From Micromonosporaceae bacterium (lineage in GTDB: Bacteria; Actinomycetota; Actinomycetes; Mycobacteriales; Micromonosporaceae), in contig DASVMV010000331.1 in the NCBI GenBank assembly GCA_036384155.1, positions 1 to 52,334 on the forward strand: DNA of 52,334 nucleotides. Reading direction: 5' to 3'. Position 1 is the first letter of the stretch. Each line of letters starts with the position of its first letter. The translations under genes were made by a program, and so were the position numbers. Below the pieces are notes generated by a model that was given only the letters and a program-made list of their open reading frames with translations, made no database searches and was not told the origin of the DNA. Shown in pieces: positions 23,951 through 41,057 of this stretch.

Positions 23951-23982
23951 GACCGGACGAGCTTACGCTCGGCCGGCCGGGA

Positions 23983-25116: not shown

Positions 25117-25122
25117 CGCCCC

Positions 25123-26103
25123 TTATGCGATGCCGAGCAGCTGCCGCAGCTCTGCCGGGGTGAGCCACTGGTCGTTGGAGTCCGACCGGTAGGTGAACCC
25201 GTCCGGCACCTCCTCGCCGCCGGTTGGCGGGGTGTAGCCCCAGGTGGCGATCGTCGGCTGGACGACGTAGCGGTCCTTGAACCGCAGAGTGCGCCGGCTG
25301 TCGTCGGGGGCGATCATCTCCTCGTGGAGCTTCTCGCCCGGCCGGATGCCGATCTCGTACGTCGGGCTGTTCGGCGCGACGGCCTCGACCAGGTCGAGGA
25401 TCCGCATGCTGGGGATACGGGGAACGTAGAGCTCCCCGCCGTTCATGATCTCGAACGAGTCGACGACGAACTTGACCGCCTGCTCGAGGGTGATCCAGAA
25501 GCGGGTCATCCGCTTGTCGGTGATCGGCAGGCTCTTGCCCTCGGCGGCGAGCCGGCGGAACAGCGGCACCACCGAGCCACGGCTGCCCATGACGTTGCCG
25601 TAGCGGACCACGGCGAACCGGGCCGGGTGGTGCGCCGCGTAGTGGTTTGCCGACACGAAGAGCTTGTCGGCCACCAGCTTGGTCGCCCCGTACAGGTTGA
25701 TCGGGCTGGACGCCTTGTCGGTGGAGAGCGCCACGACCTTCTTCACGCCCGAGTCGATCGCCGCCTCGACGACGTTCTGCGAACCCGTGACATTGGTCTG
25801 GACGTACTCGAAGGGGTTGTATTCGGCGGTGTCCACCTGCTTGAGCGCCGCGGCGTGGACGACATAGTCGATGCCGTGCATCGCCCGGGTGAGCCGGAAG
25901 CGGTCGCGCACGTCCCCGATGAACCAGCGCAGCCGGGGGTCGTCGCCGAACATCTGCTTGACCTCGTACTGCTTGAGCTCGTCCCGGGAGAAGATGACCA
26001 CCCGCTGCGGGTCGAGGTCGGTGAGCACGTGCTTCAGGAACGCCTTGCCGAAGGAGCCCGTGCCGCCGGTGATCAAGATGGACGACCCACCCAGGATGCT
26101 CAC
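25123..26103 (-). CDS. pseB: UDP-N-acetylglucosamine 4,6-dehydratase (inverting)
   Basis: ILITGGTGSFGKAFLKHVL, DVRD, and YGATKLVADKLF (YxxxK). At 326 aa it is the short PseB/FlaA1 type. Confidence 0.9.
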   Translation of the reverse strand: MSILGGSSILITGGTGSFGKAFLKHVLTDLDPQRVVIFSRDELKQYEVKQMFGDDPRLRWFIGDVRDRFRLTRAMHGIDYVVHAAALKQVDTAEYNPFEYVQTNVTGSQNVVEAAIDSGVKKVVALSTDKASSPINLYGATKLVADKLFVSANHYAAHHPARFAVVRYGNVMGSRGSVVPLFRRLAAEGKSLPITDKRMTRFWITLEQAVKFVVDSFEIMNGGELYVPRIPSMRILDLVEAVAPNSPTYEIGIRPGEKLHEEMIAPDDSRRTLRFKDRYVVQPTIATWGYTPPTGGEEVPDGFTYRSDSNDQWLTPAELRQLLGIA

Positions 26104-26252
26104 GCGCTAACTCCCCACACTCTTTCGACTCAGGCGGCATGCGACTCAGGCGGCACCGCTCGCCATGGCTGCGAGCCAGCAGCATATCCTGCCTGTCCGG
26201 AAACGCCACCTGACGGCCATCCGGCCCAGGTGGGCGGCAGTGCAGGGCAGCG

Positions 26253-26765
26253 CTACCTGCGCCGGCGGTCGGCGCGTTTCAGCGAGATGGGGATCACGGT
26301 GATCCGCCGCCCGTCGATCTCCCGCTGCTCGGGTTCGCCCTCGACGAACCGGAAGCGACGGTTCATCTGGCGGATGACCGCGTTGTGCTCCAGCACCTCG
26401 CCGTCGAGCCGATCGAGCTGGAGCCGGTCGAACGCGTAGTCGGCGGCCTCCCGCATCACCTCGAGCCAGGCCGGCAGGGTCGCCCGGCGCTCGTCGAGTC
26501 CCGCGGCGTCCAGAAAGAACCCCCACGAGCCGGTCTTGACCTCGCCGTCCAGGTCGAGGTCGAAGAAGTTGACCACGCCCGACGGCACCCCGTCGCGCTC
26601 GTAGATGAGAACCTGCCGGGTGCGGTCGGCCCGGGTCCGGGACCACCAGGCCGCGTGCTCGTCCGGTGTGATCTCGTGGCTGTGGATGCTCACCTCGCGG
26701 TTGGGCGCCTGGTTGCGCCACTGCCGCATGTCGTCCAGATCACTGTCGGTCGCCGGTCGCAGCAT
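26253..26765 (-). CDS. pseH: UDP-4-amino-4,6-dideoxy-N-acetyl-beta-L-altrosamine N-acetyltransferase (GNAT)
   Basis: MLRPATDSDLDDMRQWRNQAPNREVS...EHAAWW...VVNFFDLD...LEVLEHNAVIRQMNRRFRFVEGE fits the PseH GNAT pattern, and the gene sits in pse context. Confidence 0.8.
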   Translation of the reverse strand: MLRPATDSDLDDMRQWRNQAPNREVSIHSHEITPDEHAAWWSRTRADRTRQVLIYERDGVPSGVVNFFDLDLDGEVKTGSWGFFLDAAGLDERRATLPAWLEVMREAADYAFDRLQLDRLDGEVLEHNAVIRQMNRRFRFVEGEPEQREIDGRRITVIPISLKRADRRRR

Positions 26766-26805
26766 TCTCGGTCACCTTTCGGACGGACGGCGGGGCGGCC
26801 CGAAC

Positions 26806-26889: not shown

Positions 26890-27141
26890 ATGAATCGGCT
26901 GAGTCGGTCCCAGGTTCGCGACCTGATGGGGCAAGTTATGAAGAACCAGGGCAAAGTTCTGCCTGACGACGACAGCGCAGATCTCCGTGAGATTGGCTTC
27001 CGGTCCCTCGACTTCTCCGAACTCGCCCTCCGCGTCGAAGACGAGATCGGCGAGGAGCTGAACTTCGACGCGCCCGGCCTGCGGCAGATCGCCACGGTCG
27101 GCGACGTCCTCGACTTCATCGTGCAGCTGCAGTCGGAGTGA
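26890..27141 (+). CDS. Acyl carrier protein
   Basis: 83 aa. LREIGFRSLDFSELALRVEDEIGEEL places a Ser in the carrier-protein SLD context, and the protein is acidic. GTGA overlap with the ligase gene. Confidence 0.8.
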   Translation: MNRLSRSQVRDLMGQVMKNQGKVLPDDDSADLREIGFRSLDFSELALRVEDEIGEELNFDAPGLRQIATVGDVLDFIVQLQSE

Positions 27142-28433
27142 CTGTGCCGGACGCGCCCGACGCCCGCTCGCCCCAACCGGCCCGGGCCGGCGATGACAAC
27201 CAGCCGGCCCTGGCCGGCGATGACAACCAGATCGTCGCCGGTGGCGCGACGTTGACCTGGCGGACGCTTCCCGCGGTCGATCTTCCCTCGCCGGTGGCGG
27301 TCCTCGCGGCCTCGGGCACCGATGCGCTGGCCGCCGCGCGGCAGCACGCCGTTTCCGGCACCGAACTGGTCCTCAGCACGCCGTCCCGGGTCGATCCGGC
27401 GCTGCGCGACGAGCTGACCGACGCCGGCTTCGCGGTCGCGCTGCTGGACGGCGGCGAGGTCACCATGCTGGCCAAGGGCCAACACCGGGCACCGGATCCC
27501 GGCCGCCTCTGGCTGCTCACCTCGGGCTCCACCGGGCGGCCCAAACGGGTCGGCCACACCCTGGACTCGCTCACCACCGTCCGCGCGCCGCAGGACCGGC
27601 GCACCTGGCTCTGCCCGTACTCGCCCGGCACGTACGCCTGGTGGCAGGTGGTGACGCTGTCGCTGACCCAGCCCGGGCAGGACCTGGTCGTGATCGAGCC
27701 CGCCGAGCTGGACCGGTGGCCCCAGATCGCGACCGAGCACGGGGTGACCGCCGCGTCCGGGACCCCCACGTTCTGGCGGCAGGCGCTCCACCGGGACGGC
27801 CCGGCCCTCGCCCAGGTGCCGCTGCGCCAGGTCACCCTCGGCGGCGAGCCGGTGGATCAGGCGATCCTCGACCAGCTGCGCGAGATCTTCCCCGCTGCGC
27901 GGATCTCGTGGATCTACGCGTCGTCCGAGGTGGGGGCCTCGATCGTCGTACACGACGGACGGGCCGGATTCCCCCAGGAGTGGCTCGACCGGCCCGCCCC
28001 GGACCGGCCCACCATCTCGGTGTCCGGCGACGAACTGGTGATCACCTCGCCGTACCACGGCGACGGGCTGGCCGGAGCGGTCCGCACGGGCGACCGCGTC
28101 GAGATCGTCGACGGCCGGGTGCACATCGTGGGCCGCCTCAACTCCGACGAGATCAATGTCGGCGGCTCCAAGGTTTCGGCCGGGCTCGTCCGCAACGTCC
28201 TCACGGCGCACCCCGCCGTGGCCTGGGCCCGGGTGAGCGGCCGGAAGGCTCCGCTGGTCGGGCGCGTCGTGGCGGCGGAGGTAGTGCTGGCTCCCGGAGC
28301 CGACCGCGCCGACGCCGACGAGGCGGCCCTCGTACAGTGGTGCACCGAGCGGTTGCCCGACTACGGCGTGCCACGCCGGATCCGCTACCTCGATGAGATC
28401 CCGTTCAAGGAGACCCTGAAAAGCGATGTCTGA
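27138..28433 (+). CDS. AMP-dependent (adenylate-forming) acyl-ACP/CoA ligase, short form
   Basis: LLTSGSTGRPKRVGHT core motif, YASSEVG, and GDRVEIVDGRVHIVGRLNSDEINVGGSKV. The N-terminus contains a duplicated AGDDNQ unit. Confidence 0.8.
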   Translation: MTVPDAPDARSPQPARAGDDNQPALAGDDNQIVAGGATLTWRTLPAVDLPSPVAVLAASGTDALAAARQHAVSGTELVLSTPSRVDPALRDELTDAGFAVALLDGGEVTMLAKGQHRAPDPGRLWLLTSGSTGRPKRVGHTLDSLTTVRAPQDRRTWLCPYSPGTYAWWQVVTLSLTQPGQDLVVIEPAELDRWPQIATEHGVTAASGTPTFWRQALHRDGPALAQVPLRQVTLGGEPVDQAILDQLREIFPAARISWIYASSEVGASIVVHDGRAGFPQEWLDRPAPDRPTISVSGDELVITSPYHGDGLAGAVRTGDRVEIVDGRVHIVGRLNSDEINVGGSKVSAGLVRNVLTAHPAVAWARVSGRKAPLVGRVVAAEVVLAPGADRADADEAALVQWCTERLPDYGVPRRIRYLDEIPFKETLKSDV

Positions 28434-29196
28434 CAGCGCCGGCCCGAGCTCCGCAGGCACCAGCGTGATTGCCCCCTCGACGGTCGTACTCGTCTCCGGC
28501 GGGTCGCGCGGGCTGGGCCTGGCGATCGTCGCCGACCTCCTCGCGCAGGGGTTGAAGGTGGCCGCATTCGCCCGGACGGTGACGCCGGAGCTGCAGGACC
28601 TGGCCGCCAAGTACGAGGGCCGCAGCCACGTCGGCTCCGTCGACATCACCGATGTCTCGGCGTGCCAGCGCTTTGTGAAGGAGACCGAGGCCCGCCTCGG
28701 TCCGATCGACGGTCTGGTCAACAACGCCGCGGTCGGCCAGGACTCGCTGCACGTCCACACGTCCGTCGACCAGATCGAGAAGATCGTCAACACCAACCTG
28801 ACCGCGCCACTGGTCCTCACCCGCCTGGTCCTGCGGCGGATGCTCGCGCAGGGCCTGCGCGGCCGGGTGGTCAACGTCACCTCCATCTGCGCCCAGCGCG
28901 GCTACGCCGGCCTCGTGGCGTACTCGGCCACCAAGGGGGGCATGGACGCCGCCACCCGCACCATCGCCCGGGAACTGAGCGGCCGGGTGCTGGCCAACGC
29001 CGTCGCGCCGGGCTTCTTCGCCTCCGAGATGTCGGCCGTGCTCGGCCAGACGCAGCTCGACCAGATCACCCGGCGTACGCCCACCGGGCACCTCACGGAG
29101 CCCGAGGAGGTCGTACCCGTCATCCGCATGCTGCTCTGCGACCACACCAACATCAACGGGCAGGTCATCGAGGTCGACGGTGGCGCATCGATCTAA
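28426..29196 (+). CDS. SDR-family oxidoreductase (3-oxoacyl-ACP reductase-like)
   Basis: VSGGSRGLGLAI (TGxxxGxG), NNAAV, and YSATKGGMDA (YxxxK). 8-nt overlap with the ligase gene. Confidence 0.9.
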   Translation: MSDSAGPSSAGTSVIAPSTVVLVSGGSRGLGLAIVADLLAQGLKVAAFARTVTPELQDLAAKYEGRSHVGSVDITDVSACQRFVKETEARLGPIDGLVNNAAVGQDSLHVHTSVDQIEKIVNTNLTAPLVLTRLVLRRMLAQGLRGRVVNVTSICAQRGYAGLVAYSATKGGMDAATRTIARELSGRVLANAVAPGFFASEMSAVLGQTQLDQITRRTPTGHLTEPEEVVPVIRMLLCDHTNINGQVIEVDGGASI

Positions 29197-29635
29197 CCGG
29201 CGACTCGCCGATTCGGCGCTGGTCCAGGCGGTGCTCGATCAGGCCGAGGCCAGGCTGGACGTGACCGGCGGCAGCGCCGGAGGCGGGGCCGCCGCCGGCG
29301 CACTGACCCGATCCCACACCTCGGACTTCCGCACCGTCGGGTGGTATGGCATCCCGCCGCCCGGCTGGCGCCTCGCGATCGACGCCGAGGTGAGCGACGC
29401 ACCCGTGCCGCCCGCCCTCGCGGCCCGCTTCGGCCCGGCGTCGTTCTGGAGCCGGTGGACCCGGGCCGAGAGCATGTGCAAGGTGTTCGGCGTGCCGATC
29501 GCGGTCTGGCTGCGCCGGCACGGTCTCGGCGTGCCGGCGCGGTTTCCCGGTGCGTGGCGCACGCTGGCGCTGGCCGACCTGACCATCTCGGTGGCCTGCG
29601 TGCCCGCCGCGGTGGTCGACCGAGGCGCGGGCTGA
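29180..29635 (+). CDS. Divergent, short 4'-phosphopantetheinyl-transferase-like protein (tentative)
   Basis: The 151-aa ORF has very high GC3. LAIDAEV resembles the GxDxE motif and FWSRWTRAESMCKVFG resembles the W-x-x-KEA-x-x-K motif of PPTases. The spacing is shorter than in canonical enzymes. Confidence 0.4.
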   Translation: MAHRSNRRLADSALVQAVLDQAEARLDVTGGSAGGGAAAGALTRSHTSDFRTVGWYGIPPPGWRLAIDAEVSDAPVPPALAARFGPASFWSRWTRAESMCKVFGVPIAVWLRRHGLGVPARFPGAWRTLALADLTISVACVPAAVVDRGAG

Positions 29636-29637: not shown

Positions 29638-30477
29638 ATGCATCACGCGAACTACTACTACGGGCACGCGCACCTGCTCGCCCGCTACTGCCGGCTCAGC
29701 GAGCCGATGCACCCGCCGCGGATCCTGGGCTACTACCAGCACGGCTGGAACATCGGTGACAGCCAGGCGGCCGGTGTCCCCTTGGTCTTCGGCAGCAAGC
29801 TCTTCGTGTGGTCCGAGCAGACCCGGCGGCGCGCCTGGTCGCAGGGGCGGCGCAACGCGATCGTGACCGGGGCGCCGTTCGCGTACCTGCTGCAGATGGA
29901 ACCCGAACCGCCGGACCTGCGCCGCGAGGGCACGCTGTTCTATCCGTTCCACGGGTGGGAAGGGCAACGGGTGCTGGGCGACCACGCCCGCATGATCGAC
30001 GAGGTCAAGTCGGTCGAGACCGGCCCCATCACCGCGTGCCTCTACTGGAGCGAGTACCGGAACAGGCGCATTCGCCGACAGTACGAGAAGGCCGGCGTGA
30101 GGGTGATCTGCCACGGCTATCGCGGCTTCTGGTGGCGCGATCACGACCGGACGTTCCTCGACCGCCAGATGGCCGAGCTCCGCCAGCACAAGCGGGTGGT
30201 CTCCAACCGGTTGTCCAGCGCGATCTGGTACGGGCTGCTCGCCGGCTGCGACGCGGCCGTGTACGGCGACCCGATGCAGCTGGAGGACGCGGACCCGCTG
30301 TTCGGCGGCGAGCCGCGGATCCGGCGGCAGTGGTCGGAGCTGTACGGCTACGAGGTCGACCGGTCCGTCGCGTACGCCATGGCCCGGGAGGAACTGGGCG
30401 CCGACCTCCTGGCCTCCCCGGAAGAGCTCCGGCTTCACCTCGGCTGGGCCGAATCTCAGGACGGTGGACATGTCTGA
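29638..30477 (+). CDS. Uncharacterised protein, family A, copy 1
   Basis: 279 aa starting MHHANYYYGHAHLLARYC. It is a paralogue of 34140-34970, sharing long blocks such as QHGWNIG, FVWS, GRRN, FHGWEG, GDHAR-IDE, HKRV--NRLS-AI and AVYGDPMQLE---PLFGG. I recognise no family. Confidence 0.75.
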   Translation: MHHANYYYGHAHLLARYCRLSEPMHPPRILGYYQHGWNIGDSQAAGVPLVFGSKLFVWSEQTRRRAWSQGRRNAIVTGAPFAYLLQMEPEPPDLRREGTLFYPFHGWEGQRVLGDHARMIDEVKSVETGPITACLYWSEYRNRRIRRQYEKAGVRVICHGYRGFWWRDHDRTFLDRQMAELRQHKRVVSNRLSSAIWYGLLAGCDAAVYGDPMQLEDADPLFGGEPRIRRQWSELYGYEVDRSVAYAMAREELGADLLASPEELRLHLGWAESQDGGHV

Positions 30478-32260
30478 CCCGGACCCGGTACGTCGCGTCG
30501 GCGGCGAGATGTTCGCCTGGAGCGACTGGGATCCCGCTCGGGGTCCCCGAGTTCCCCGCGGCAACACGCTGTTCCACCTGCTGTCGGAGCTCGCGTCGGG
30601 GAGTCGTACGGTCCTCGTCGCCGGGCCGCACGAGGACGAGATCCTCACCCGCTTGGCGGCCCGGGGCGCGGCCGTGTCCTGCGTGGTCCGCTCGCTGGCC
30701 GACGCCGAACGGATCGCCGGCGCCTACCCGGACGTCACGGTCTACTGCGGCAGCCTAGGCAAGATCGATCAGCCGGATGGCTTCGACCTGATCGTCGCCG
30801 CCGACGGCATGGAGCGGCTGGCCTCGGCCGAAGGCGGTCAGGAGAGCCCGGACGATCTGCTGCAGAGCCTGACCCACCTGCTGAGCTCGCGCGGCGTGCT
30901 GGCCCTGATGCACGCGAACATCTGCGGCGTACAGCATCTCGTCGAGCTGGAGCCGGGCCGCCACTACCGCTCGGACACGGCGTGGTACCCGGTCACCGAG
31001 CACGACGAGCTACGCCCCGCGTCCGTGCCCCAGTTGCACGATCGGCTGCGCGCCCACGGCCTCGACGTGTCGTGGGACTACGCCGTCTTCCCCACCTCCC
31101 ACCTGCCGACCGTCTTCGTCGCGCACGACATCGCCCGCGACGTCGACTCACCCCTGCGCGGCCCGCTCGGGTCAGTGCTCTTCGCCGCGCTGACCGAGGC
31201 GTACGCCGACACGCCGGTGGTCCGGGATCCCCGAGCGATCATGGAGCGCGCCGTGCGCACCGGCACCGCCGCGTCGTTGGCCCCAGCCTGGCTGACCCTG
31301 GCCCGGCGGGCCGATGCCACCGGCATGGCCGTGCCGCACCACGATCTGGTCGTCGGCGGCACCGACTCGTTCGTGTACGAATTCAGCGTTGCCGGCTCGG
31401 ACATCCGGCGATCGGTGCTGGCGCCCGCGACGGGAGAGGACCAGAGCGCGGGCCTGCGCCGGGTCGCCGACCCCGGGTCCGCGCTGCACCGGGCGGGTCG
31501 CCTGTTCGAAGACCACCTTCTGCAGCTGTGTGGCCGCCACGATCTGGTCGGCCTGCGGGCGGCGCTCGGCCGCTACGTCGCCTGGGTGCAGGAGCAGTCG
31601 TCCGACGGCGCGGTCGCCGGCGCCGCCGCACTCGCCGGCACCTACGACCTCATCTTCACCGAGACCGACTTCTGGCCCGTCCCCTCCAGGTGGGCCCCGG
31701 TCGAGCCGGTGCCGGCAGGCGTGGTCGTCGCCCGGACGCTGTGGGGATTCGCGGTACGACTGATCACGTTCAACCGCCCGCACCCGTGGCATCTGACCGC
31801 GAGCGCGGCGGAGCTCACCGCGATCCTCGCGGCGACCGCCGGCCAATCACTCAACCAGGGCGATCTCGATGCGGCAATCGATCTGGAAGCCGGCCAGCGG
31901 GCTGCTGACCGGGATCTCCCGCCGGAGCGGACGGCCGAACTCCGCGCCGCGCTCGCCGGCGTCCGGGCCGACACTGCGGGCGTCGACATCCAGGGCTACC
32001 GCGAGATGGCCGACGCCCTGTGGCGGCAGGAATACCAGCTGCAGCAGATGCACGCCCTGGTCGCCTGGACCGAAAAGATCATCCGGGACCGGGACCGCGC
32101 CCTCAGTGCGCTCGACCAGGAGGTCCGGCTGTACCAGGGCACCAGGACCGAAAAGGTGTTCACGTTCCTCAAGATGGCCTACCGCAAGCTGCGCTTCAGC
32201 GCCGGCCGGCTGAAGCGCAAGCTCCGGCGCAACCGCCGGGACGCGACCGAAATGCAGTAG
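30464..32260 (+). CDS. Uncharacterised protein, family B, copy 1 (Rossmann/methyltransferase-like N-domain, coiled-coil and basic tail)
   Basis: 598 aa. The N-domain TVLVAGPHEDEIL...FDLIVAADGMERL resembles a class I MTase fold but lacks the GxGxG loop. The C-terminus LWRQEYQLQQMHALVAWTEKIIRDRDRALSALDQEVRLYQGTR is followed by KVFTFLKMAYRKLRFSAGRLKRKLRRNRR. The GTG start overlaps gene A by 14 nt. Confidence 0.75.
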   Translation: MDMSDPDPVRRVGGEMFAWSDWDPARGPRVPRGNTLFHLLSELASGSRTVLVAGPHEDEILTRLAARGAAVSCVVRSLADAERIAGAYPDVTVYCGSLGKIDQPDGFDLIVAADGMERLASAEGGQESPDDLLQSLTHLLSSRGVLALMHANICGVQHLVELEPGRHYRSDTAWYPVTEHDELRPASVPQLHDRLRAHGLDVSWDYAVFPTSHLPTVFVAHDIARDVDSPLRGPLGSVLFAALTEAYADTPVVRDPRAIMERAVRTGTAASLAPAWLTLARRADATGMAVPHHDLVVGGTDSFVYEFSVAGSDIRRSVLAPATGEDQSAGLRRVADPGSALHRAGRLFEDHLLQLCGRHDLVGLRAALGRYVAWVQEQSSDGAVAGAAALAGTYDLIFTETDFWPVPSRWAPVEPVPAGVVVARTLWGFAVRLITFNRPHPWHLTASAAELTAILAATAGQSLNQGDLDAAIDLEAGQRAADRDLPPERTAELRAALAGVRADTAGVDIQGYREMADALWRQEYQLQQMHALVAWTEKIIRDRDRALSALDQEVRLYQGTRTEKVFTFLKMAYRKLRFSAGRLKRKLRRNRRDATEMQ

Positions 32261-32395
32261 CGCGCCCAGCAGCGAAAGGCCCCCCGGCACATCGGCAAGG
32301 GTCCTCGGGGATGGGCCTACCACGCCCGGCTCCGGGCGGTCAGGCTTGATCCCTCCGCCTGGCGCCGCGGGCCCATCTTTCCGGCCTTTCTCAGG

Positions 32396-34153
32396 TCACC
32401 GGCGCAGCACCCGGACCAGGCGCCGCTTCACCCCCCGTGCGAACCGCCGCGGTTGCCGGACCGTGCCGGCCTTGCGAATGATCTCGGCCAGCTTGGCCGC
32501 CCGGGAACCCTGGATCGTCCGCAGGTCCGACCGGAGCCCGCGCAGCCGGCTCTCGCGTACCCGCAGCTGCTGGTCGCGGAACCGGATGGTGCGCTCCAGC
32601 CCGAAGATGTGCCCGGCGAGCTCCTCGGCCCTGACCCGGGCGGCCTCCGCGTCGGCGAGCGCGGTACGCAGGTCGGCCTCCGGGTCGCCGCCGGAGTCGG
32701 AACCGCTCGCGGCCGCAACGGCGTCGGCGATCTCCCGTCCGCGCTTGACCGTCGCCGCCGTAGCCTCGTCCCCGGCCTCCTCCCCGCACATCGCGAGCCA
32801 TGCCGTCACGAGCTCGTCGCCGACCATCCACGGCGGCCACGGGTGCCGGCGATGTCCGCGCAGCAGGCGGTCCTGGAAGCGTTGCCAGGCCGCCGCCAGC
32901 AGCTCCGATGTGGACGCCGGCGGGGTGGTCACCCAGCCGAACACCCCGCGGGCGAAGGATTCCCCGTCCACGCACAGGTCGTCGAAGCAGATGACGACGT
33001 CAGCATCCTCCTCGGTGCGGCCCCGCGCCCACTCGCCGATCTGCGCAGCCACCCGGCGGAAACCCGGTACGTCCTCCGCGGCCGCCAGCCGGAGGAGGAC
33101 ACGTTCGACCGACTCGGTGTCGGGGACCACGCCCGGTACCGCGGCCGGGGAAAAGGCGATGCCGGCAGACGCGCCGCTCTCGGCGATCTCGCCGCTCTCG
33201 GCGCTCTCGGCGCTGGAGACCCGTACCCGCCAGCCCTGCTCGTCAAGGTTGGCGGTCAGCACGCTCGCCGCGTCTGCGGCCTCGGCGTAGACGGTACGGG
33301 CGGTGGCGCCGCACACCGCGAGCCAGCACGGTGACACGGCGTCGAGCAGCCCGGCCCGAGCGGCGGCGTCGGCGCTGTCCGCCACCGGGGCCAGCAGCGG
33401 GGTGCTGACCGTCGAGGCCTCCAACGCGCGGACGGCGAGCCGCGCGGCGAGCCGCCCCGGTCGGGTCGCGGCCGCGGCGGCCCGGTCCAGCATCGTGTGC
33501 GGGACGCCCGCGACGTCGACCATCGCGTACAGGCCCTCTACCGCGAGACCGACCCCGGCGAGGGCGTTGACCAGCTGGTCCGGCGACGTCGGCCGGTACG
33601 GGTCGTCGTGCAGCGGCCGCCATTCATCGTCGCCGTGCCGGTTGTCGACCGGTCGCCGGTCGAGCAGCCCGGTCAGCGCGAACTCGTTGTCGCACCCGAG
33701 GACGACCACGGCCTGCGGTGCGGCTGTCCGGGCCAGTGCGGACGCCCGCTCCGGCCACGTCATCGCCGGGGAATCCGTGCCGAGCACCCGGTCGAGGCCG
33801 TCGGCGGCCACGACCACGTCGAACCGCTCGTCGGCCCGGTCGGCAAATCCGTCGAGCGCCCCGGTGACGACCTTCACGTTGGTCGCCTGGACCGCCGCCT
33901 CCAGCGTCGTGGCGTCACCGACCGACCGCAGCAGTACCGTGACGCTCTCACTGCTGGCGGCCACGAGTTCGATGACGTCACGGGCGTGCGGGCCGACCAC
34001 GAGCGCCCGCGCCGCCTGCGGGAGCACGTCCTGCAGCAGGGCCTGCAGAACCGCGCCGCCGGTTGGCTTGCGGTGGCCCTCGTAGTCGCTCCACGGCTGC
34101 ATCTCGCCCCGGACGACGTCGACGGTGATCGAGCCGTTCTCAGTCACGTTCAT
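32396..34153 (-). CDS. Uncharacterised protein, family B, copy 2
   Basis: 585 aa with the same architecture as 30464-32260: ALVVGPHARDVI...FDVVVAADGLDRV, a C-terminal LERTIRFRDQQLRVRESRLRGLRSDLRTIQGSR, then AAKLAEIIRKAGTVRQPRRFARGVKRRLVRVLRR. The ATG overlaps gene A copy 2 by 14 nt. Confidence 0.75.
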   Translation of the reverse strand: MNVTENGSITVDVVRGEMQPWSDYEGHRKPTGGAVLQALLQDVLPQAARALVVGPHARDVIELVAASSESVTVLLRSVGDATTLEAAVQATNVKVVTGALDGFADRADERFDVVVAADGLDRVLGTDSPAMTWPERASALARTAAPQAVVVLGCDNEFALTGLLDRRPVDNRHGDDEWRPLHDDPYRPTSPDQLVNALAGVGLAVEGLYAMVDVAGVPHTMLDRAAAAATRPGRLAARLAVRALEASTVSTPLLAPVADSADAAARAGLLDAVSPCWLAVCGATARTVYAEAADAASVLTANLDEQGWRVRVSSAESAESGEIAESGASAGIAFSPAAVPGVVPDTESVERVLLRLAAAEDVPGFRRVAAQIGEWARGRTEEDADVVICFDDLCVDGESFARGVFGWVTTPPASTSELLAAAWQRFQDRLLRGHRRHPWPPWMVGDELVTAWLAMCGEEAGDEATAATVKRGREIADAVAAASGSDSGGDPEADLRTALADAEAARVRAEELAGHIFGLERTIRFRDQQLRVRESRLRGLRSDLRTIQGSRAAKLAEIIRKAGTVRQPRRFARGVKRRLVRVLRR

Positions 34154-34970
34154 TCCAATCGAAGAGCATCCGCATCTCGGCGGGCGACATCATCCACGGC
34201 CGGCCGAGTTCGTAGTCGGTCACTTCCCGGGCTACCTTGACGTCGATGTCCTTACCCAACATCTCCGGCCAGAGGCGGGCGACCCGCGCGGTTCCCCCGA
34301 ACAACGGGTTCTCGCCCTCCAGCTGCATCGGATCGCCGTAAACGGCGGGTTCGCAGCCGGCGGCGACGCCAAAAAAGATCGCCGTGGACAACCTGTTCGC
34401 GGCCACCCGCTTGTGCCGGCGCAGGGCCTCGAGCTGCTTGTACAGGAACCGCCGGTCCGTGCCCTCGTAGTTCCAACCCCGGCGGCCGAAGCAGACCACC
34501 TCGAAGCCGGCCTCTTCGTAGTAGCGGCGGATCTCCGGCCGCTCGTACTCGGTGTAGTAGAGGCTGAACGTCACCGGGCCGGGTTCGGTCTCCCGGATCT
34601 CGTCGATCAAACGGGCGTGATCGCCCTGGATCTTGCCGCCCTCCCAGCCGTGGAAGAGGAACCAGAGGGTGCCGCTGCGGCTTTCGTCGGGCACCCGACC
34701 CAGATCCGGCTCGAGGTCCATCAGGTAGAGCCACGGCGCGCCCACCACGTGGTAGTTGCGCCGGCCCAGCGAGTGGCCCCGCCGCCGGGGCGCGTCGCTC
34801 CACACGAAACGCCACGCGCCGTCGAAGAACTCGTGCACCGGATTCCAGCCGCAGCCGATGTTCCAGCCGTGCTGCAGGTATCCGCGGAGGCGGGGCGGAT
34901 GGACGTCGTCGAGACCGCAGTGGCGAGCAAGGATGTGGGTCTGGCCGTAGTAGTGATTGTGGTGATGCAT
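34140..34970 (-). CDS. Uncharacterised protein, family A, copy 2
   Basis: The protein starts MHHHNHYYGQTHILARHC at ATG 34968-34970, homologous to the start of copy 1; the track uses a TTG two codons upstream at 34976. By eye it is about half identical to copy 1. Confidence 0.75.
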   Translation of the reverse strand: MHHHNHYYGQTHILARHCGLDDVHPPRLRGYLQHGWNIGCGWNPVHEFFDGAWRFVWSDAPRRRGHSLGRRNYHVVGAPWLYLMDLEPDLGRVPDESRSGTLWFLFHGWEGGKIQGDHARLIDEIRETEPGPVTFSLYYTEYERPEIRRYYEEAGFEVVCFGRRGWNYEGTDRRFLYKQLEALRRHKRVAANRLSTAIFFGVAAGCEPAVYGDPMQLEGENPLFGGTARVARLWPEMLGKDIDVKVAREVTDYELGRPWMMSPAEMRMLFDWNERD

Positions 34971-34972
34971 AG

Positions 34973-37333
34973 TCAACGTACCTCTAGGTGCAACGTGCCG
35001 ACACGAGGCTGGAGGAGGATGCGCCGGTCATCGAGTTCCAGCTCCACCGGAAGCCGGCCGAGCAGGAACATCTCGGTCTGCACCGCGTACGGGGACTCGT
35101 CACCCTCCGGTGCCCAGAACAGCGTCCAGTCGGCCAGGCTGGTTAGCGGATCGGCGGACTGGCGGGAAACCACCGTCGGCGGCGGCAGCAGGTCCGCCAC
35201 GGCGACCCCGGCCGACCAGCGTCCGTCGTCGATCGCCACCTGGCAGCGCACGTCGACGTAGTCGTCGGAGTTCTCCAGGAAGCGGCGCCATACGAACGTG
35301 CCGCCGGCAACGTCGTCCCACTGGTGGCCGTGCGCCACCAGCCGCGGGCCACCGATACCCGTGTCGACGTCGATCGTGTCGGCGGTGAGGCGGATCGGGC
35401 CTTCGTGCAGATTGACGTAGTTGCCCGGCGATCGGGTGAGGGTGAGCATCCGCCCCTCGTAGGTCGTAGACACCGCCCGGTCGAGGCTGCTGGCTAGCAG
35501 GAACCGGCTGTCTTCCCCGTCGCCGATGGTGGGCACCCGGGTGGTGCGCTGGGTGAACGGGTCGTCCGGATTCGCGGCGTCGACGATCGTGGCCAGCGGG
35601 AGCCGGGCCCGGAAGGTGGTTCCGGTGGCGTCGGTGCCGGTCTCCATCCGCACGAGCGCGTCGCTCGCCGACCGGGTCAGCCGAAGCGCCGGTGCCGCCG
35701 CCTGGCCGGGCAGCCGTCCGGACAGAACGAACGCGTCGTCATCGACCTCGGCGGAGGTCAGCTGGAACGGCCGTACGAGCTGCTGAAGAAGCAGCCGGCC
35801 GTCGCTGGCTCGGCTCGGCTGGATCCAGACCTCGTCGGTGACCCAGGCGCCCGGCGCGGACTGCGGGTGGCCGGCCCGCAGGTTGCGTAGCATCCCCCGG
35901 CGGAAGAGCAGGCCGTTGCGCAGGTCAAGCAGGAAGAAGGCGGATTTGCCCTCGGGTCGGAAGGCGGCCAGGAGGCTTCGCGGTACGCGCACCTCGAAGC
36001 CGACCATCGCCAGGTCGCCGTGCGAGTCGAGGGTGCGGAACCGCTCCACCCGCAGCGGCGTCTTGCGGCCCGCGAAGACCAGCGTGACGTGCAGCGACGA
36101 TTTGCCGTCGGTCGGCAGATGGCGGATCTCGGCGGTACCCCGCACGATCAGGTCGCCGTCGTCCCAGGCGATCCCGGAAACGGTGCTGTGCAGATACATC
36201 GCCTGCCGCGGCAGCCGGTAGAGCTTACGCGGCACCGGCCGTGGGTGGTCGTCGATACCCGGGTACCGGTTCTCGAACCGCCACGGCATCGCGGGCCGGC
36301 GGCGCGCCCGGGCACCACCGTGCAGCCCCCCGTCGAGCCGGAACTGGGCCAGCCGCTGCAGCAGGTCGACGTTGCCGGCCTCCAACACCTGGTACTGCAA
36401 CCGGTCGTACGACGAGGCGCTTTCCAGCACCTTGTTGTCCAGGCGCCGGGTGAGTCTCCGTCCGAGCTCCACCAACGCGTCCTGCTCGTGCTCAGGCACC
36501 GAGCCGAACGCCTGCACCAGTGCCGCGAGATCGATCTGGGCGAACTGCCGGTGCACCTGGCCGCGCAGTTCCGGTGCGCTCGCGTCGAGCAGGTCCATGA
36601 CCATCTCGGCCGAGACGACCCGGTCGTACAGGTTGGAGTACTCGAACTTCTGTTGGGTGATCGACTCGCCGGATTCCCGCTCACGCCAGTAGTAGACCGG
36701 AGCCGCGAGACAGTCCACGGTCACCGCATCGATGTGCGCCTTGAGGGTGACCGGGTAATCCTCGTACCTGATCGGCGGGAACTCATAGCCGAATTCGTCC
36801 CAGAAGGACCGGCGGTAGACCTTGTTCCACACCATCCGGTCGAGCGCCAGCGGGGGGAACTCGAACACATGCGTGGCCTGGCGGTCGCGGGCGAACGGAA
36901 CCCGGTGCAACCACGACTCGCGTACGCCCGAACTGTTGTTGAACCGCCGGGCGTCTCCGGCGACGAACGATGAGCCGGTGTCGTCGAGCGAGCGGACCAT
37001 CGTCTCGTAGGCGTGGCGGGTCACGAGATCGTCGCTGTCGACGAAGGTGATGTACTCCCCTTCGGCGTGCCGAGTACCGGTGTTCCGCGCCGGGCCGAGG
37101 CCCTGGTTCTCCTGCGCCACCACGCGGAACCGGGCATCGCGCTCGCAGAAAGCCTTCGCGATCTGAGCGCTGCCGTCGCGCGATCCGTCGTCGACCAGGA
37201 CCACTTCGAAGTCGTCGAACGTCTGCCGAGCCAGCGAGTCCAGGCAGTCGCCGATGTAGTCCTCGACGTTGTAGAACGGCACGACGACGCTAAGCCGGGG
37301 TGCCACACTGCCTCCTGCGGGGTTCAGCTTCAT
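34973..37333 (-). CDS. GT2-family glycosyltransferase with a long (~550 aa) uncharacterised C-terminal region
   Basis: N-terminus LSVVVPFYNVEDYIGDCLDSLARQTFDDFEVVLVDDGSRDGS...FVDSDD is a GT-A/GT2 signature. The remainder is beta-rich-looking and unrecognised. An alternative GTG start at 37306 follows AGGAGG. Confidence 0.85.
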   Translation of the reverse strand: MKLNPAGGSVAPRLSVVVPFYNVEDYIGDCLDSLARQTFDDFEVVLVDDGSRDGSAQIAKAFCERDARFRVVAQENQGLGPARNTGTRHAEGEYITFVDSDDLVTRHAYETMVRSLDDTGSSFVAGDARRFNNSSGVRESWLHRVPFARDRQATHVFEFPPLALDRMVWNKVYRRSFWDEFGYEFPPIRYEDYPVTLKAHIDAVTVDCLAAPVYYWRERESGESITQQKFEYSNLYDRVVSAEMVMDLLDASAPELRGQVHRQFAQIDLAALVQAFGSVPEHEQDALVELGRRLTRRLDNKVLESASSYDRLQYQVLEAGNVDLLQRLAQFRLDGGLHGGARARRRPAMPWRFENRYPGIDDHPRPVPRKLYRLPRQAMYLHSTVSGIAWDDGDLIVRGTAEIRHLPTDGKSSLHVTLVFAGRKTPLRVERFRTLDSHGDLAMVGFEVRVPRSLLAAFRPEGKSAFFLLDLRNGLLFRRGMLRNLRAGHPQSAPGAWVTDEVWIQPSRASDGRLLLQQLVRPFQLTSAEVDDDAFVLSGRLPGQAAAPALRLTRSASDALVRMETGTDATGTTFRARLPLATIVDAANPDDPFTQRTTRVPTIGDGEDSRFLLASSLDRAVSTTYEGRMLTLTRSPGNYVNLHEGPIRLTADTIDVDTGIGGPRLVAHGHQWDDVAGGTFVWRRFLENSDDYVDVRCQVAIDDGRWSAGVAVADLLPPPTVVSRQSADPLTSLADWTLFWAPEGDESPYAVQTEMFLLGRLPVELELDDRRILLQPRVGTLHLEVR

Positions 37334-37363: not shown

Positions 37364-38422
37364 TCAAACAAGGTCCCAGCTCAGCGGGGTGCCTTTGGCG
37401 ACATCACGGCGAAACGTGCGTCCGATCACCTTGCTGATCTCGTCCGGGGCAAGACCTCCGGCGGGACGGATGGAGCGCACGTTGGCGGCGGTGACCGGGT
37501 CACCGGCGCGCACATCCTCGGTGACGAACAGGGAGCGCCGGAACCGCAGCCCTTCCTGCTCGGCGTCGGATGGCCCGATGTACGTCGTGCCCAGGGCCTG
37601 CCAGGCCCGTTCGCTCTCGGTGACCAGCGCGGCCAACTCGGTGGGTTCCAACGAGAACGCGGAATCCACGCCGCCGTCGTCGCGGGCCAGCGTCACGTGC
37701 TTCTCGATCACCCGGGCGCCCAGCGCGACGGAGGCGACCGCAACGCCGATCCCCATCGTGTGGTCGGACAGGCCGACCACCGCGTCGAACGCCTCAGCCA
37801 GGACCGGTAGCCGCCGCAGGTTGCTGTGCTCGGCGGGGGCCGGATACGACACGGTGCAGGCCAGCAGGATCAGGTCGGCGCAGCCGGCGCCCCGGGCCGC
37901 CTCCGCCGCGGCGGCGACCTCGCCCAAGGTCGCCATGCCGGTGGAGATGATCAGCGGCTTGCCGGTGCTCGCGACCAGGCGGATCAGCGGCAGGTCGACG
38001 ATCTCCGACGAGGCAATTTTGTAGAGCGGCGCCCCTAGATCTTCGAGCAGGTCGACTGCCGTCGCGTCGAACGGCGAGGAGAACGCGATCATGCCGTGTT
38101 CCTGAGCCCGCTCGAAGATCGGCCGATGCCACTCCCACGGAGTGTGCGCCTGCTCGTACAGCTGGTAGAGGTTCCGCCCACCCCACAGGTCGTGGCCGTC
38201 GGAGATCTTGAAGGCAGGCGCATCCACGTCAATGGTCATCGTGTCGGCGCGATAGGTCTGCAGTTTCAGCGCCTGGGCCCCGCTGGCGGCCACCGAATCG
38301 ACGATGGCCAGCGCCCTCGACAGGTCACCATTGTGGTTCCCGGACATCTCGGCGACGATGAACGGCCGGTGATCCGGCCCGACGCTGTGCGCGCCGCACT
38401 TGATGGACTCACGTCGGCTCAT
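37364..38422 (-). CDS. pseI: Pseudaminic acid synthase (NeuB family)
   Basis: FIVAEMSGNHNGDLSRALAIVDSVAASGAQALKLQTY is a NeuB TIM-barrel signature. There is a C-terminal SAF-like domain (...VRSIRPAGGLAP...GTPLSWDLV). The gene sits in pse context. Confidence 0.88.
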   Translation of the reverse strand: MSRRESIKCGAHSVGPDHRPFIVAEMSGNHNGDLSRALAIVDSVAASGAQALKLQTYRADTMTIDVDAPAFKISDGHDLWGGRNLYQLYEQAHTPWEWHRPIFERAQEHGMIAFSSPFDATAVDLLEDLGAPLYKIASSEIVDLPLIRLVASTGKPLIISTGMATLGEVAAAAEAARGAGCADLILLACTVSYPAPAEHSNLRRLPVLAEAFDAVVGLSDHTMGIGVAVASVALGARVIEKHVTLARDDGGVDSAFSLEPTELAALVTESERAWQALGTTYIGPSDAEQEGLRFRRSLFVTEDVRAGDPVTAANVRSIRPAGGLAPDEISKVIGRTFRRDVAKGTPLSWDLV

Positions 38423-38729: not shown

Positions 38730-39722
38730 TTATCCGAGACGAGCCCCGACCGGGTCCGCTGGCGATATCTCGTCGGCCGGGGCGTCGGACCCGTCGTAGG
38801 CGGAGTCGGACCCGATGTAATAGGCGGGCCGGCCCTGCACCGCCGCATAGATGCGCCCGACGTACTCGCCCACCAGCCCGACGCAGATCAACTGGACGCC
38901 GCCCAGGAAGGTAACCGCGACGAACAGCGACGTCCACCCGGGAACCGTCGTTCCCTTCAGGTACGCGCCCACGCCGCCGAGGAACATCAGCAGGCAGACG
39001 GCGAAGCTGACCAGCCCGAGCCAGGTGGCCAGGCGCAGTGGCGCCGCCGAGAAGTTGGCGATGCTGTCGAAGGCCAGGCGGACCATCTTGCCGAGCGGGT
39101 ACTTCGTTTTGCCGGCGGCCCGCTCCGCCCGAACGTAGGTCACCACGCCGCTCGGGAAGCCCAGCGACGGAACGAGGAGCCGGTACACGGGTCGCTGCTC
39201 GGGCAGCGCGATCAACGCGTCGACGGCGCGCCGGCTGAGGAGGCGGAAGTCACCGGCATGGCGGGGTACCCAGGAACCGATCGTTCGGCGCATGATCAGG
39301 TAGTAGGCGGCTGCGGTGGTGCGCTTGAAGAAGGTGTCGGTCGTCCGGTCGACGCGGACGCCGTACACGACATCGAGGTTGTCCCGCTGAGCGAGCGCCA
39401 GCATATCGACGATCTTCTCGGGGGGATCCTGCAGGTCCGCGTCGATGCTGACAACGTACGTCCCATGGGCGCGGTGGAGTCCGGCCGTGAGGGCGGCCTG
39501 GTGGCCGGCGTTGCGGCGCAGCCCGACGACCCGCAGCTGCGGCCAGACGTGCCGGAACTCGCCCAGCAGCCGGGCCGTGTCGTCCGTGCTGCCGTCGTCA
39601 ACCGCAACCACCTCGTAGGGCGCCGCCAGCCCGTCGAGCACGGGCCGTAGTCGATCAACGAGCAGGGCCAGCGCGTCTTCCTCGTTGTACATCGGAATGA
39701 CAACAGACAGCTGCGGCATCAT
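38730..39722 (-). CDS. Polyprenyl-phosphate glycosyltransferase (GT2, GtrB/DPM1/ArnC-like)
   Basis: LSVVIPMYNEE, VVAVDDGSTDDT and IDADLQDPPE, plus two C-terminal TM helices (LATWLGLVSFAVCLLMFLGGVGAYL and LFVAVTFLGGVQLICVGLVGEYV). I prefer the start at the MM codons (39722 or 39719, after GAGGAC) over 39764. Confidence 0.85.
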   Translation of the reverse strand: MMPQLSVVIPMYNEEDALALLVDRLRPVLDGLAAPYEVVAVDDGSTDDTARLLGEFRHVWPQLRVVGLRRNAGHQAALTAGLHRAHGTYVVSIDADLQDPPEKIVDMLALAQRDNLDVVYGVRVDRTTDTFFKRTTAAAYYLIMRRTIGSWVPRHAGDFRLLSRRAVDALIALPEQRPVYRLLVPSLGFPSGVVTYVRAERAAGKTKYPLGKMVRLAFDSIANFSAAPLRLATWLGLVSFAVCLLMFLGGVGAYLKGTTVPGWTSLFVAVTFLGGVQLICVGLVGEYVGRIYAAVQGRPAYYIGSDSAYDGSDAPADEISPADPVGARLG

Positions 39723-39887
39723 CGGAGCGTCCTCAACAAGAGACCATCGTCGCGAAGGGTTCATGATGGCACGGGCGATGGGGTTCGTGCCCGCGCCCCG
39801 TCTGACGCGCCACAGGCTAGCGCCGGCGGTTCCAGCGGCACAAGGCCAGGTCCTCGCGCGCGTCAGTTACGAGGCGTTGTGCGCCAA

Positions 39888-41057
39888 CTACGGTGAGACG
39901 TCGTCAGGTTGGTCCCGTGCGGCATGCTCGACCAGCTCGCCGGTGGACCGCGGCGCTACCCGCGGAAGCGGAATGCCGTCCAGCCGGCTCGCTGTGCTGC
40001 TGCTCTTCGGCTGTCGTGCCGGCAGGCCGGACAGTCGGCCGACGAGAAGATAGGCGGCCCGCAGGAGCGCGTAGAGCCAGTACGCATCCATTCGCACCAG
40101 CGCGTGCTTGAGCCCGCGGATGCCCGGCGGCCGGCGATATCCCTCGGCCGGCAGGTAGCGCCGGTACTGCTCGGCGATCCGATGAAAGAAGGCGCGGCGC
40201 TGGTCTCCGGGTACCCGGCCCCGGTTGCCGGCGATCACGAGCAGGTGGCTGATCATCATGCTGAACAGCTGCGGCTTGAACCGGCGGTATTCCGAACCCC
40301 AGCTGTCGACCAGCGCGAAGAGCCGGTCGTACTGCTCGAAGGCCTCGAAATGCCGGGCGCTGACGGTGCGGGTGATTCCACTGCCGTCGTGCTGGCGGTA
40401 GAGGTAGCAGACGCGGGGCAGAACGGCGATGCGCTCCGCGGCCATGAGGACCGGATGGCTGAACAGATAGTCCTCGTACCACCCAGGGACGAACCGCACG
40501 CCGATCCGCTCCAGGAACGCCCGCCGGACGACCTTGTTGCACGCGATGTGCTGGAGCGAGAACAGGTCCGGCCGGTCGTCAAGACTGCTCACGGGGGGTG
40601 CGGAGGCGTCGTACAGCTGGCGGACGGACGGGTCGACGTCCGCGGTGCGCCCGTCGGGGAAGGCCTTCAGGTGGTCGACCAGGAGCACGTCCGGGCGCAG
40701 TTCACGCAACCGGGCGACGACCGCATGCAGGGCGCCCGGTGTGATCGCGTCGTCGCCGTCGACGAACCAGACGTATTCGCCGCTCGCCGCATCAAGGCCG
40801 GCGTTGCGCGCCCGCCCCAGCCCGACATTCTCGGTGAGATGGAGAACGCGTACCCGCGGGTCGGCGGCAGCGTACTGGTCGAGGATCGCGCCACACGAGT
40901 CCGGTGAGCGGTCGTCGACGGCCACCACTTCGAGTTCGGGCGTGGGGTCGGCGAGAACCGAGTCGAGGCAGCCGCGGATATACTCCTCGATCCCGTACAC
41001 CGGCACCACGACGGTGATCAGCGGCGCGCCCGCCGGTCCCGGCTCGACGATGCCCAT
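39888..41057 (-). CDS. GT2-family glycosyltransferase
   Basis: The ATG at 41055-41057 follows GGAGG. Motifs ITVVVPVYGIEEYIRGCLDSVL, VVAVDDRSPD and WFVDGDD. Confidence 0.85.
   Translation of the reverse strand: MGIVEPGPAGAPLITVVVPVYGIEEYIRGCLDSVLADPTPELEVVAVDDRSPDSCGAILDQYAAADPRVRVLHLTENVGLGRARNAGLDAASGEYVWFVDGDDAITPGALHAVVARLRELRPDVLLVDHLKAFPDGRTADVDPSVRQLYDASAPPVSSLDDRPDLFSLQHIACNKVVRRAFLERIGVRFVPGWYEDYLFSHPVLMAAERIAVLPRVCYLYRQHDGSGITRTVSARHFEAFEQYDRLFALVDSWGSEYRRFKPQLFSMMISHLLVIAGNRGRVPGDQRRAFFHRIAEQYRRYLPAEGYRRPPGIRGLKHALVRMDAYWLYALLRAAYLLVGRLSGLPARQPKSSSTASRLDGIPLPRVAPRSTGELVEHAARDQPDDVSP

Follow-up and report, generated by a model that had tools for sequence, protein, structure and literature searches.

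A translationally coupled two-gene module in actinomycete pseudaminic acid loci as a candidate for sugar transfer to wall glycopolymers

Enzymes that transfer pseudaminic acid (Pse) are scarce. Maf and FlmG are known for flagellins and KpsS1 is known from Acinetobacter, and we know of no transferase for the Pse-containing wall polymers of actinomycetes. Here we describe a two-gene module, A-B, that is present twice in a stretch of 52,334 nucleotides (nt) from a Micromonosporaceae bacterium (contig DASVMV010000331.1, assembly GCA_036384155.1; the whole stretch is referred to as the window), once on the plus strand as A-B and once on the minus strand as the paralogous pair A'-B', at the core of a Pse biosynthesis locus. 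The module is the obvious candidate for the actinomycete wall polymers and, in our assessment, the best candidate for the machinery that attaches Pse to a cell-wall polymer.

Among the closest described systems are the O-antigen chain terminators, which carry C-terminal coiled coils (PMC11231755), including WbdD, a methyltransferase-kinase-coiled-coil protein (PMC3482155). The founding member of family GT137 is the Klebsiella pneumoniae O4 terminator ORF7, a transferase dependent on cytidine monophosphate (CMP)-activated 3-deoxy-D-manno-oct-2-ulosonic acid (Kdo); its two beta/alpha/beta domains have a sheet topology like that of methyltransferases, which are their only structural neighbours, a helical bundle and then a C-terminal coiled coil come after the catalytic module, and the protein is membrane-associated (PMC11231755). 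The nonulosonic-acid (Pse/Leg) transferases of Tannerella forsythia (Tanf_01245 / TFUB4_00887), which also belong to the known Pse transferases, are TagB/GT-B-like, and bacterial transferases of the sialyltransferase type have conserved HP and D/E-D/E-G motifs (PMC5420450). The literature on Pse in Actinoplanes and Micromonospora and on teichulosonic acid genes yielded nothing on the proteins described here.

Two paralogous gene pairs and their occurrence in Actinomycetota

The preliminary description of this DNA recognized two gene pairs facing each other tail to tail, and all four open reading frames (ORFs) were confirmed from the ORF listing (Table 1). A and A' share 140 of 275 residues (51% identity, E 4e-98), and B and B' are indeed more diverged with the same order of elements, being collinear over residues 12-572 at 24% identity (E 2e-24); both similarities are far above chance. 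The junctions are alike as well. A starts with ATGCATCAC 2 nt past the TGA of the ORF at 29180-29635 (TGA-gc-ATGCATCAC), A' starts with ATGCATCAC 2 nt past the TGA of the gene at 34973-37333 for a GT2 protein of 786 amino acids (aa) (TGA-ct-ATGCATCAC), and the overlaps within the pairs, GTGGACATGTCTGA for A/B and ATGAACGTGACTGA for A'/B', agree in 10 of 14 bases. It should be noted that B may start at the ATG at 30470, which corresponds to the database gene call of 596 aa and to an 8-nt overlap, instead of the GTG at 30464. For A', the ORF listing also holds an alternative TTG start at 34976; since homologues of A start at MHH, with M1, H2 and H3 almost invariant, the ATG at 34970 is taken as the start. 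The 135-base-pair length of the spacer between the convergent pairs (32261-32395) was confirmed from the sequence. A terminator in this spacer was rejected, as a search for a consensus site found none and the spacer folds no better than shuffled sequence (z -0.79).

We surveyed one genome per GTDB species for relatives of A, which are encoded in at least 576 loci; the best 80 were kept, a top-scoring set skewed to Micromonosporaceae, with flanks limited to 10 kb. Among the 89 A genes in these 80 loci, 65 are directly followed by a B-type gene, whose start overlaps or abuts the A stop in 64 of the 65 pairs (-11, -8, -4 or -1 nt). The paralogy and the start/stop overlap noted for the window hold after alignment, and both are conserved. 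PseI, PseB, PseC or PseF is found within 10 kb in 56 of the 80 loci and in 54 of the 65 loci with B, that is, A-B pairs mostly lie beside pse genes. The gene order GT2-PseH-PseI-PseB-PseC-A-B-PseF-PseG hardly varies within Micromonospora and Catellatospora, and the order PseB-PseC-A-B recurs in Streptosporangium canum (hhalign probability for B 100%) and in one more contig. The nonulosonic-acid link proposed in the preliminary description is therefore strong in Actinomycetota, although it is not universal in the wider A family and a few A-B pairs are isolated.

The same description took the arrangement for a mirror duplication, and here the data speak otherwise. In eight Actinoplanes/Paractinoplanes loci, the orthologues of A' are 76-80% identical and those of B' 50-52% identical to their counterparts in the window, and the A orthologues of the same loci show 70-73% identity to A and only ~48-52% to A', which argues that the two pairs split before these genera did. 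DNA likeness between the two arms of the window reaches 72% in a best stretch of 216 nt, which is residual coding similarity only. Other genomes also differ in gene order. In Plantactinospora siamensis, A-B is followed by GT2 and PseI genes on the opposite strand and then by a second A-B pair that is co-directional with the first, and in Flexivirga (Micrococcales) PseB-PseC-A faces B'-A'-GT2-NeuB-GNAT, with an hhalign probability of 99.7% for the B' homologue. A recent local inverted duplication was therefore rejected; the separate orthologues and the co-directional pairs of P. siamensis point to an ancient duplication of the pair followed by rearrangement, and the tail-to-tail layout, a mirror form specific to the window, is, as judged from gene order and identities, one of the several ways in which two old paralogous modules are arranged. 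The rate of divergence of B is about twice that of A, yet each protein keeps its own partner (A-B and A'-B').

Upstream of an intact B at one Actinoplanes/Paractinoplanes locus (L013), only fragments of an A-like gene are present (5050-5423; 43% identity across 84 aa and 38% across 39 aa), and an intact A is located 4.5 kb from this fragmentary gene; the fragments may represent a decayed A.

Predicted folds and conserved motifs of A and B

Neither A nor A' has a match among Pfam, NCBIfam or PDB sequence profiles, 53 members of the A family gave no match to any glycosyltransferase family in Pfam or NCBIfam even at E<=1, and a broad profile of 43 A sequences searched against PDB returned nothing. 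No transmembrane helix is predicted in A. An AlphaFold2 (AF2) model of A, built like that of B from a shallow alignment, is an alpha/beta structure with a five-stranded C-terminal Rossmann lobe (predicted local distance difference test score, pLDDT, 85.8; predicted template modelling score, pTM, 0.87). All of the top 50 PDB matches listed by Foldseek for this model are GT-B-type enzymes (best E 1.6e-4, listed probability 0.77-1.0), including UDP-N-acetylglucosamine (UDP-GlcNAc) 2-epimerases as the best ones, SenB, TagF (3l7l), TarM and CalG. With TM-scores of only about 0.35, this supports a resemblance of the predicted fold of A to the GT-B glycosyltransferase superfamily and not family membership.

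An exhaustive hidden Markov model search of 1.84 billion representative proteins recovered 1,519 clusters of the A family at E<=1e-3 and 757 at E<=1e-10. The family spans several phyla, low-GC organisms included, and the named members that we found are all labelled 'hypothetical'. A profile of distant low-GC members matched the actinobacterial A profile with 100% probability. Residues invariant across the family are G9 (YGH), H35 (QHGW), G78 and Y83 (GAPxxY), H105 (P-x-H) and L253. In the C-terminal Rossmann domain, the P-x-H motif comes immediately behind the first strand, and a further conserved motif, SN-R-x-S/T-S/T-A, lies at strand 4 / helix 4; the two sites would correspond to the positions at which GT-B enzymes with cytidine-activated donors bind the donor phosphate. 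Distant members were found in or beside polysaccharide genes in all ten contexts sampled, seven of which have a CTP_transf_3 (cytidylyltransferase) gene in the flank. Natural fusions join the A domain to two GT2 domains (P0174, 1085 aa), to one GT2 domain (P0211, 595 aa) or to a hexapeptide-repeat acyltransferase (P0184, 589 aa). A putative A-B fusion, P0194, has a junction that looks like a frameshift artefact and was not used as 'Rosetta stone' evidence.

In an array conserved among three contexts from low-GC metagenome bins (L082, L085 and contig qEX91sQE), genes for a PseB-like protein, a DegT protein, a methyltransferase, an aldo-keto reductase and a class-III aminotransferase precede A, and CTP_transf_3, an uncharacterised gene, GFO_IDH_MocA, DegT, an ABC exporter, a HAD phosphatase and a SIS isomerase follow it. 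The uncharacterised neighbours of distant low-GC A genes were rejected as homologues of B (hhalign <0.1%), one of them being weakly Wzx-like.

Several specific identities were considered for A and dropped, with hhalign comparisons that are insensitive where the target is a single sequence. A is not a non-orthologous PseG, as a true PseG is encoded at 22011-23195, A and A' have no match to TIGR03590 and hhalign gives 0.25%. The name polysaccharide pyruvyltransferase, attached to one UniRef entry, was set aside at 0.33% against the PS_pyruv_trans protein of a Micromonospora locus, and a TagF-like sequence was rejected for want of a Pfam PF04464 match and at 0.36% against a GT2+Glyphos_transf protein (L084). 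The Pfam families MAF_flag10 (PF01973) and Capsule_synth (PF05159) have no matches in A, A', B, B' or their homologues; by Pfam, domains of the Maf, KpsS and TagB types are missing from A and B, FlmG and the T. forsythia proteins lying outside this direct comparison.

The AF2 model of B (pLDDT 85.4) divides into four parts: residues 1-215 form an N-domain of methyltransferase fold, residues 216-345 are rich in beta strands, residues 346-500 are helical, and residues 511-556 and 559-595 make up a pair of long helices. Foldseek returned 398 PDB matches at E<=1e-3 (best E 3e-8, 2o57), of which all 50 listed have the class-I methyltransferase fold, and aligned B with WbdD (4azs) over 504 columns at a low TM-score (0.22/0.29). 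Pfam Methyltransf_23 is weakly matched by 14 of 42 B homologues (best E 1.7e-5), and some homologues carry the NCBI name 'class I SAM-dependent methyltransferase', SAM being S-adenosylmethionine. Taken together, the model and these matches indicate a class-I methyltransferase fold for B. In all 42 aligned sequences, however, motif I reads V/L-x-(A/V)-G-P-H (VLVAGPH) instead of E/DxGxGxG, and the end of strand beta2 reads (L/V/A)-R-S/A (LLRS) with no acidic residue. We therefore consider canonical SAM binding unlikely and rejected a functional SAM methyltransferase as an identity for B. Conservation is densest in the N-domain, where 48 of 215 columns are conserved at >=90%, which speaks for a genuine ligand pocket. 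On reading the alignment, the middle region showed no conserved catalytic motifs of kinases.

No transmembrane helices are predicted in B or B', and the last 40 aa carry a net charge of +11 and +13, respectively; a basic tail on a protein with no transmembrane helix fits a predicted peripheral membrane anchor. The intact proteins B and B' have no matches in Pfam and NCBIfam and no significant matches to PDB sequence profiles. Relatives of B were found only in Actinomycetota. The preliminary description could assign neither protein to an enzyme family by motif, which is true of profile searches as well, in which neither A nor B has a strong match to a characterised family in Pfam, NCBIfam or PDB, but not at the fold level, where the models allow A to be assigned as GT-B-like and B as a class-I methyltransferase fold.

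Proposed role of the module and its rivals

The reading that we favour, and which we hold at a little under even chances, is that A-B is a membrane-recruited module for Pse transfer or chain control in the making of a wall glycopolymer. The two translationally coupled and conserved proteins would act together at the cytoplasmic face of the membrane, where a Pse-containing cell-wall glycopolymer is assembled. A would be the likely catalytic transferase, a small enzyme with a GT-B-like fold from a family not described before, probably with CMP-Pse as its donor and with His35 (QHGW) and His105 (P-x-H) at the donor site. B would be its partner, a methyltransferase-fold protein that lacks the SAM motifs and may have kept a highly conserved pocket; it would anchor the complex at the membrane and might also control the length or the termination of the chain, as do the coiled-coil proteins WbdD, WbbB and GT137 in O-antigen assembly dependent on ATP-binding cassette (ABC) transporters. 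The two ancient paralogous modules presumably serve different acceptors or linkages, and in the loci examined one of the two always follows a large GT2 protein. As for the transferase or polymer-assembly role proposed in the preliminary description, the predicted folds fit it, A being GT-B-like and B combining a methyltransferase fold with long helices, and the function itself is what we infer. The CMP-Pse pathway (PseB/C/H/G/I/F) is complete in the window without A or B, which places A outside the sugar pathway. The other glycosyltransferases recognized in the window and in the examined Micromonospora-type loci are GT2 proteins, and to our knowledge no GT2 enzyme uses a CMP-sugar.

A number of observations weigh against this reading. 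The N-lobe in the model of A is reduced to about three strands, the TM-scores of A with GT-B enzymes are low (only 0.28-0.38, with root mean square deviations of 8-15 A), and no sequence link connects A to any glycosyltransferase family, hhalign giving <=0.4% against TagF-like, pyruvyltransferase, PseG and GT137 sequences. The HP and D/E-D/E-G motifs of sialyltransferases are absent as such from A, the nearest being P103-x-H105-G-W-E-G. The putative coiled coil of B comes from an AF2 model of the monomer, which shows a helical hairpin and not an oligomeric ruler. Among the genes identified in the window there is no Wzt-type ABC transporter that carries a carbohydrate-binding module. No NeuB is visible in the array at distant low-GC A loci, where the sugar that is activated may therefore be something other than a nonulosonic acid. 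Three A-B pairs are remote from pse genes, and two of the three (L040 and L012) have non-glycan neighbourhoods with LysR, helicase or transporter genes. Finally, in 22 Actinoplanes/Paractinoplanes loci (L002, L004-L007, L009-L011, L013, L015, L017, L018, L020, L022-L029 and L031) A is an orphan followed by a gene for a GAF + HATPase_c kinase instead of B. These orphan genes, at ~10001-10813 of the loci, are 70-74% identical to A of the window; eight of them, with no pse gene within 10 kb, face a convergent B'-A'-GT2 trio.

The roles of the two proteins could be exchanged, so that B would be the CMP-Pse-dependent transferase, a GT137-like coiled-coil terminator, and A a second transferase or an accessory protein. 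The order of elements in B is that of GT137, the N-domain is its most conserved part while lacking SAM motifs, as expected for a domain with another ligand, and PseF lies directly downstream of B in Micromonospora. We nevertheless regard this exchange as unlikely, given that the second domain of B is a beta-meander and not a beta/alpha/beta domain, and that B was found only in Actinomycetota, whereas the A family in other phyla has no B and still lies beside cytidylyltransferase genes. In addition, hhalign of the B profile gives 0.06% against the E. coli twin of ORF7-O4, a single-sequence target of limited sensitivity that was retrieved via a published cloning primer. The A family in other phyla also bears on a different proposal, in which A-B would tailor the sugar, for example with B as a non-canonical methyltransferase and A as a hydrolase or epimerase of nucleotide sugars whose substrate is CMP-Pse or a precursor of Pse. 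Its low-GC members are located between aminotransferase and cytidylyltransferase genes, and A-B sits inside the biosynthetic operon between PseC and PseF; the UDP-GlcNAc 2-epimerases, the best Foldseek matches of A, together with the fold of B and the methyltransferase names of some of its homologues, would suit such enzymes too. Against this stand a pathway that is complete with a bona fide PseG and the lack of SAM motif I and of the acidic beta2 residue in 42 of 42 B sequences, as well as the long C-terminal helices and basic tail, which are atypical of soluble tailoring enzymes. The A-GT2 fusions point to a polymer as the target, and the presence of two paralogous pairs in a locus, of which one invariably follows a large GT2, fits acceptor-specific transfer better, all of which makes tailoring quite improbable to us.

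We see very little chance that A-B has a role unrelated to glycans and merely hitch-hikes in pse loci, as the isolated pairs near LysR, helicase or transporter genes and the orphan A genes beside GAF histidine kinases might suggest: pse genes accompany 54 of the 65 B loci within 10 kb, and these span three or more actinobacterial orders, overlapping or abutting A-B junctions occur inside pse operons, and the fold classes are typical of sugar and transferase enzymes. A bolder proposal, which we consider doubtful, is that Gram-positives have in A-B a counterpart, split into two proteins, of the coiled-coil terminators of ABC-transporter-dependent O-antigen pathways, in which B would be a re-purposed methyltransferase fold that binds CMP-nonulosonic acid or the chain and serves as tether and ruler, and A would be a new glycosyltransferase family capping or extending wall polymers with Pse; B would then be convergent with, or very distantly related to, GT137. 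If the split-terminator proposal is true, the A family of ~1,500 clusters would become a new CAZy family across several phyla. If B is a tether or ruler, chain-length control by a molecular ruler would no longer be limited to the O-antigens of Gram-negatives but would include wall glycopolymers of Gram-positives, and B would join GT137 as a second example of a methyltransferase-type fold that serves in the assembly of ulosonic-acid glycans. Returning to Pse transfer or chain control, the role that we prefer, A-B is directly testable with enzymatically made CMP-Pse, and since the A family is large, spread over several phyla and unannotated, a single biochemical assignment would name >1,000 protein clusters. 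The pair gives a credible lead both to a transferase family not yet described and to a coiled-coil partner in Gram-positive glycopolymer assembly.

The surrounding locus and known systems

The window has a GC content of ~70%, and the best matches of its proteins are in Micromonosporaceae, the closest named genome being that of P. siamensis. A and B are the last genes of the plus-strand operon ACP-ligase-SDR-151-aa ORF-A-B, where ACP stands for acyl carrier protein and SDR for short-chain dehydrogenase/reductase, and A' and B' are the last genes of the minus-strand operon GT2-GT2(PgfS/ArnC-like)-PseI-GT2(786 aa)-A'-B'. The trio GT2-A'-B' is kept in the Actinoplanes loci and in Flexivirga, which makes the 786-aa GT2 protein a conserved upstream partner; a Pfam search with its C-terminal 575 aa gave no matches.

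Table 1. Features of the window, with positions, strand and assignment
Feature	Position	Strand	Description
Polytopic membrane protein	19623-21953	-	776 aa; ~12 or more hydrophobic segments
PseG	22011-23195	-	start uncertain; TIGR03590 E 2e-36
PseF	23123-23962	-	Pfam
PseC	23983-25122	-	Pfam
PseB	25123-26106	-	Pfam
PseH-type GNAT	26253-26771	-	Pfam; TIGR03585 PseH E 2e-17
ACP	~26890-27141	+	operon upstream of A-B
AMP-dependent ligase	27138-28433	+	operon upstream of A-B
FabG-like SDR	28426-29196	+	operon upstream of A-B
151-aa ORF	29180-29635	+	ends 2 nt before A
A	29638-30477	+	279 aa, soluble; large family without annotation; GT-B-like predicted fold; candidate transferase
B	30464 or 30470 to 32260	+	598 or 596 aa; start overlaps A stop
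Spacer between convergent B and B' stops	32261-32395	.	135 base pairs
B'	32396-34153	-	585 aa, B paralogue; VxGPH / LLRS motifs and basic tail
A'	34140-34970	-	276 aa, A paralogue; stop overlaps B' start by 14 nt
786-aa protein	34973-37333	-	N-terminal GT2 (Pfam E 1e-39); stop 2 nt before A' start
PseI/NeuB	37364-38422	-	upstream in A'-B' operon
PgfS/ArnC-like GT2	38730-39866	-	two C-terminal transmembrane helices; upstream in A'-B' operon
GT2	39888-41216	-	upstream in A'-B' operon
ABC-2 permease/ATPase pair	43758-45607		nearest ABC-2, ~9 kb off

PseG was missed by Pfam at E<=1e-3 and is detected by NCBIfam TIGR03590 alone, below the model's own cutoff. Its ORF overlaps that of PseF by ~70 nt, and the true start is therefore probably downstream of the first GTG. 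The cassette of ACP, adenosine monophosphate (AMP)-dependent ligase, FabG-like SDR and small ORF is present in only some of the pse loci examined (L047-L080, L001, L083 and L084), and the PseH-type GNAT is 64-81% identical to that of the window in loci with the cassette and 41-49% identical in loci without it. At the level of gene content and identity, this pattern suggests an N-acyl variant of Pse (e.g., hydroxybutyryl) whose acyl group would be supplied by ACP. Behind the SDR, the 151-aa ORF is retained in other loci (in Flexivirga with 141 aa), and it has no Pfam family match; a phosphopantetheinyl transferase, considered on account of a W-x-x-A-E-S-x-x-K-like motif, was dropped for that reason. 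The GT2 protein at 38730-39866 resembles the polyprenyl-phosphate sugar synthases PgfS (E 4e-57) and ArnC (E 2e-49), and the 776-aa polytopic protein, for which no family was matched, is found again close to A-B in Actinoplanes loci (28-32% identity). These two look like parts of a GT-C-type, extracytoplasmic branch in the glycosylation of the same polymer.

Compared with known systems, A shares with PseG, the UDP-sugar hydrolase of the Pse pathway, a length of ~275 aa and a place inside pse operons, and its predicted fold resembles the small GT-B fold of PseG, but the two are separated at the profile level, and a genuine PseG is encoded alongside A in the window and in the Micromonospora loci. 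The GT-B enzymes with cytidine-activated donors (TagF/TagB, GT38/52/80 and the T. forsythia proteins) have two Rossmann-like lobes, as does A by prediction; A differs from them in its smaller size (~279 aa), its reduced N-lobe, the lack of any profile relationship and its dedicated partner B.

WbdD of E. coli O9a / K. pneumoniae O3 resembles B in combining an N-terminal class-I methyltransferase fold with a middle domain and long C-terminal helices. It associates peripherally with the membrane, as B is predicted to do, and recruits a separate soluble glycosyltransferase, WbdA, as B may do with A. In contrast to WbdD, B lacks GxGxG, the acidic beta2 residue and visible kinase motifs, and a methyl-phosphate chemistry is not implied for it. 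The partner of WbdD is a GT4 polymerase, whereas that of B is a small protein of a new family, and WbdD occurs in Gram-negatives, whereas the host of B is a Gram-positive actinomycete.

The GT137 gene used for the hhalign comparison belongs to an E. coli O4-type cluster (L087, NZ_CP033401.1 3596083-3614115) with GT4, wzm, wzt, the GT137 gene, a WsaF-like glycosyltransferase and one further gene; the cluster lies in a genomic island flanked by insertion sequences and adjoining tRNA-Sec and an integrase gene, and the annotation of the GT137 gene still reads 'hypothetical protein'. Of 5,426 complete E. coli genomes, 187 contain the first 33 nt of this gene as an exact match. Membership in GT137 was rejected for both B and A, hhalign giving 0.2% for A against the same single sequence. 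The likeness of B to GT137 is architectural only and consists in the succession of a methyltransferase-type module, a helical bundle and a coiled coil, the second domain being beta/alpha/beta in GT137 and a beta-meander in B. GT137, which had no database annotation before its characterisation, uses a CMP-activated ulosonic acid and is a single polypeptide of 705 aa, whereas A-B is a two-gene pair.

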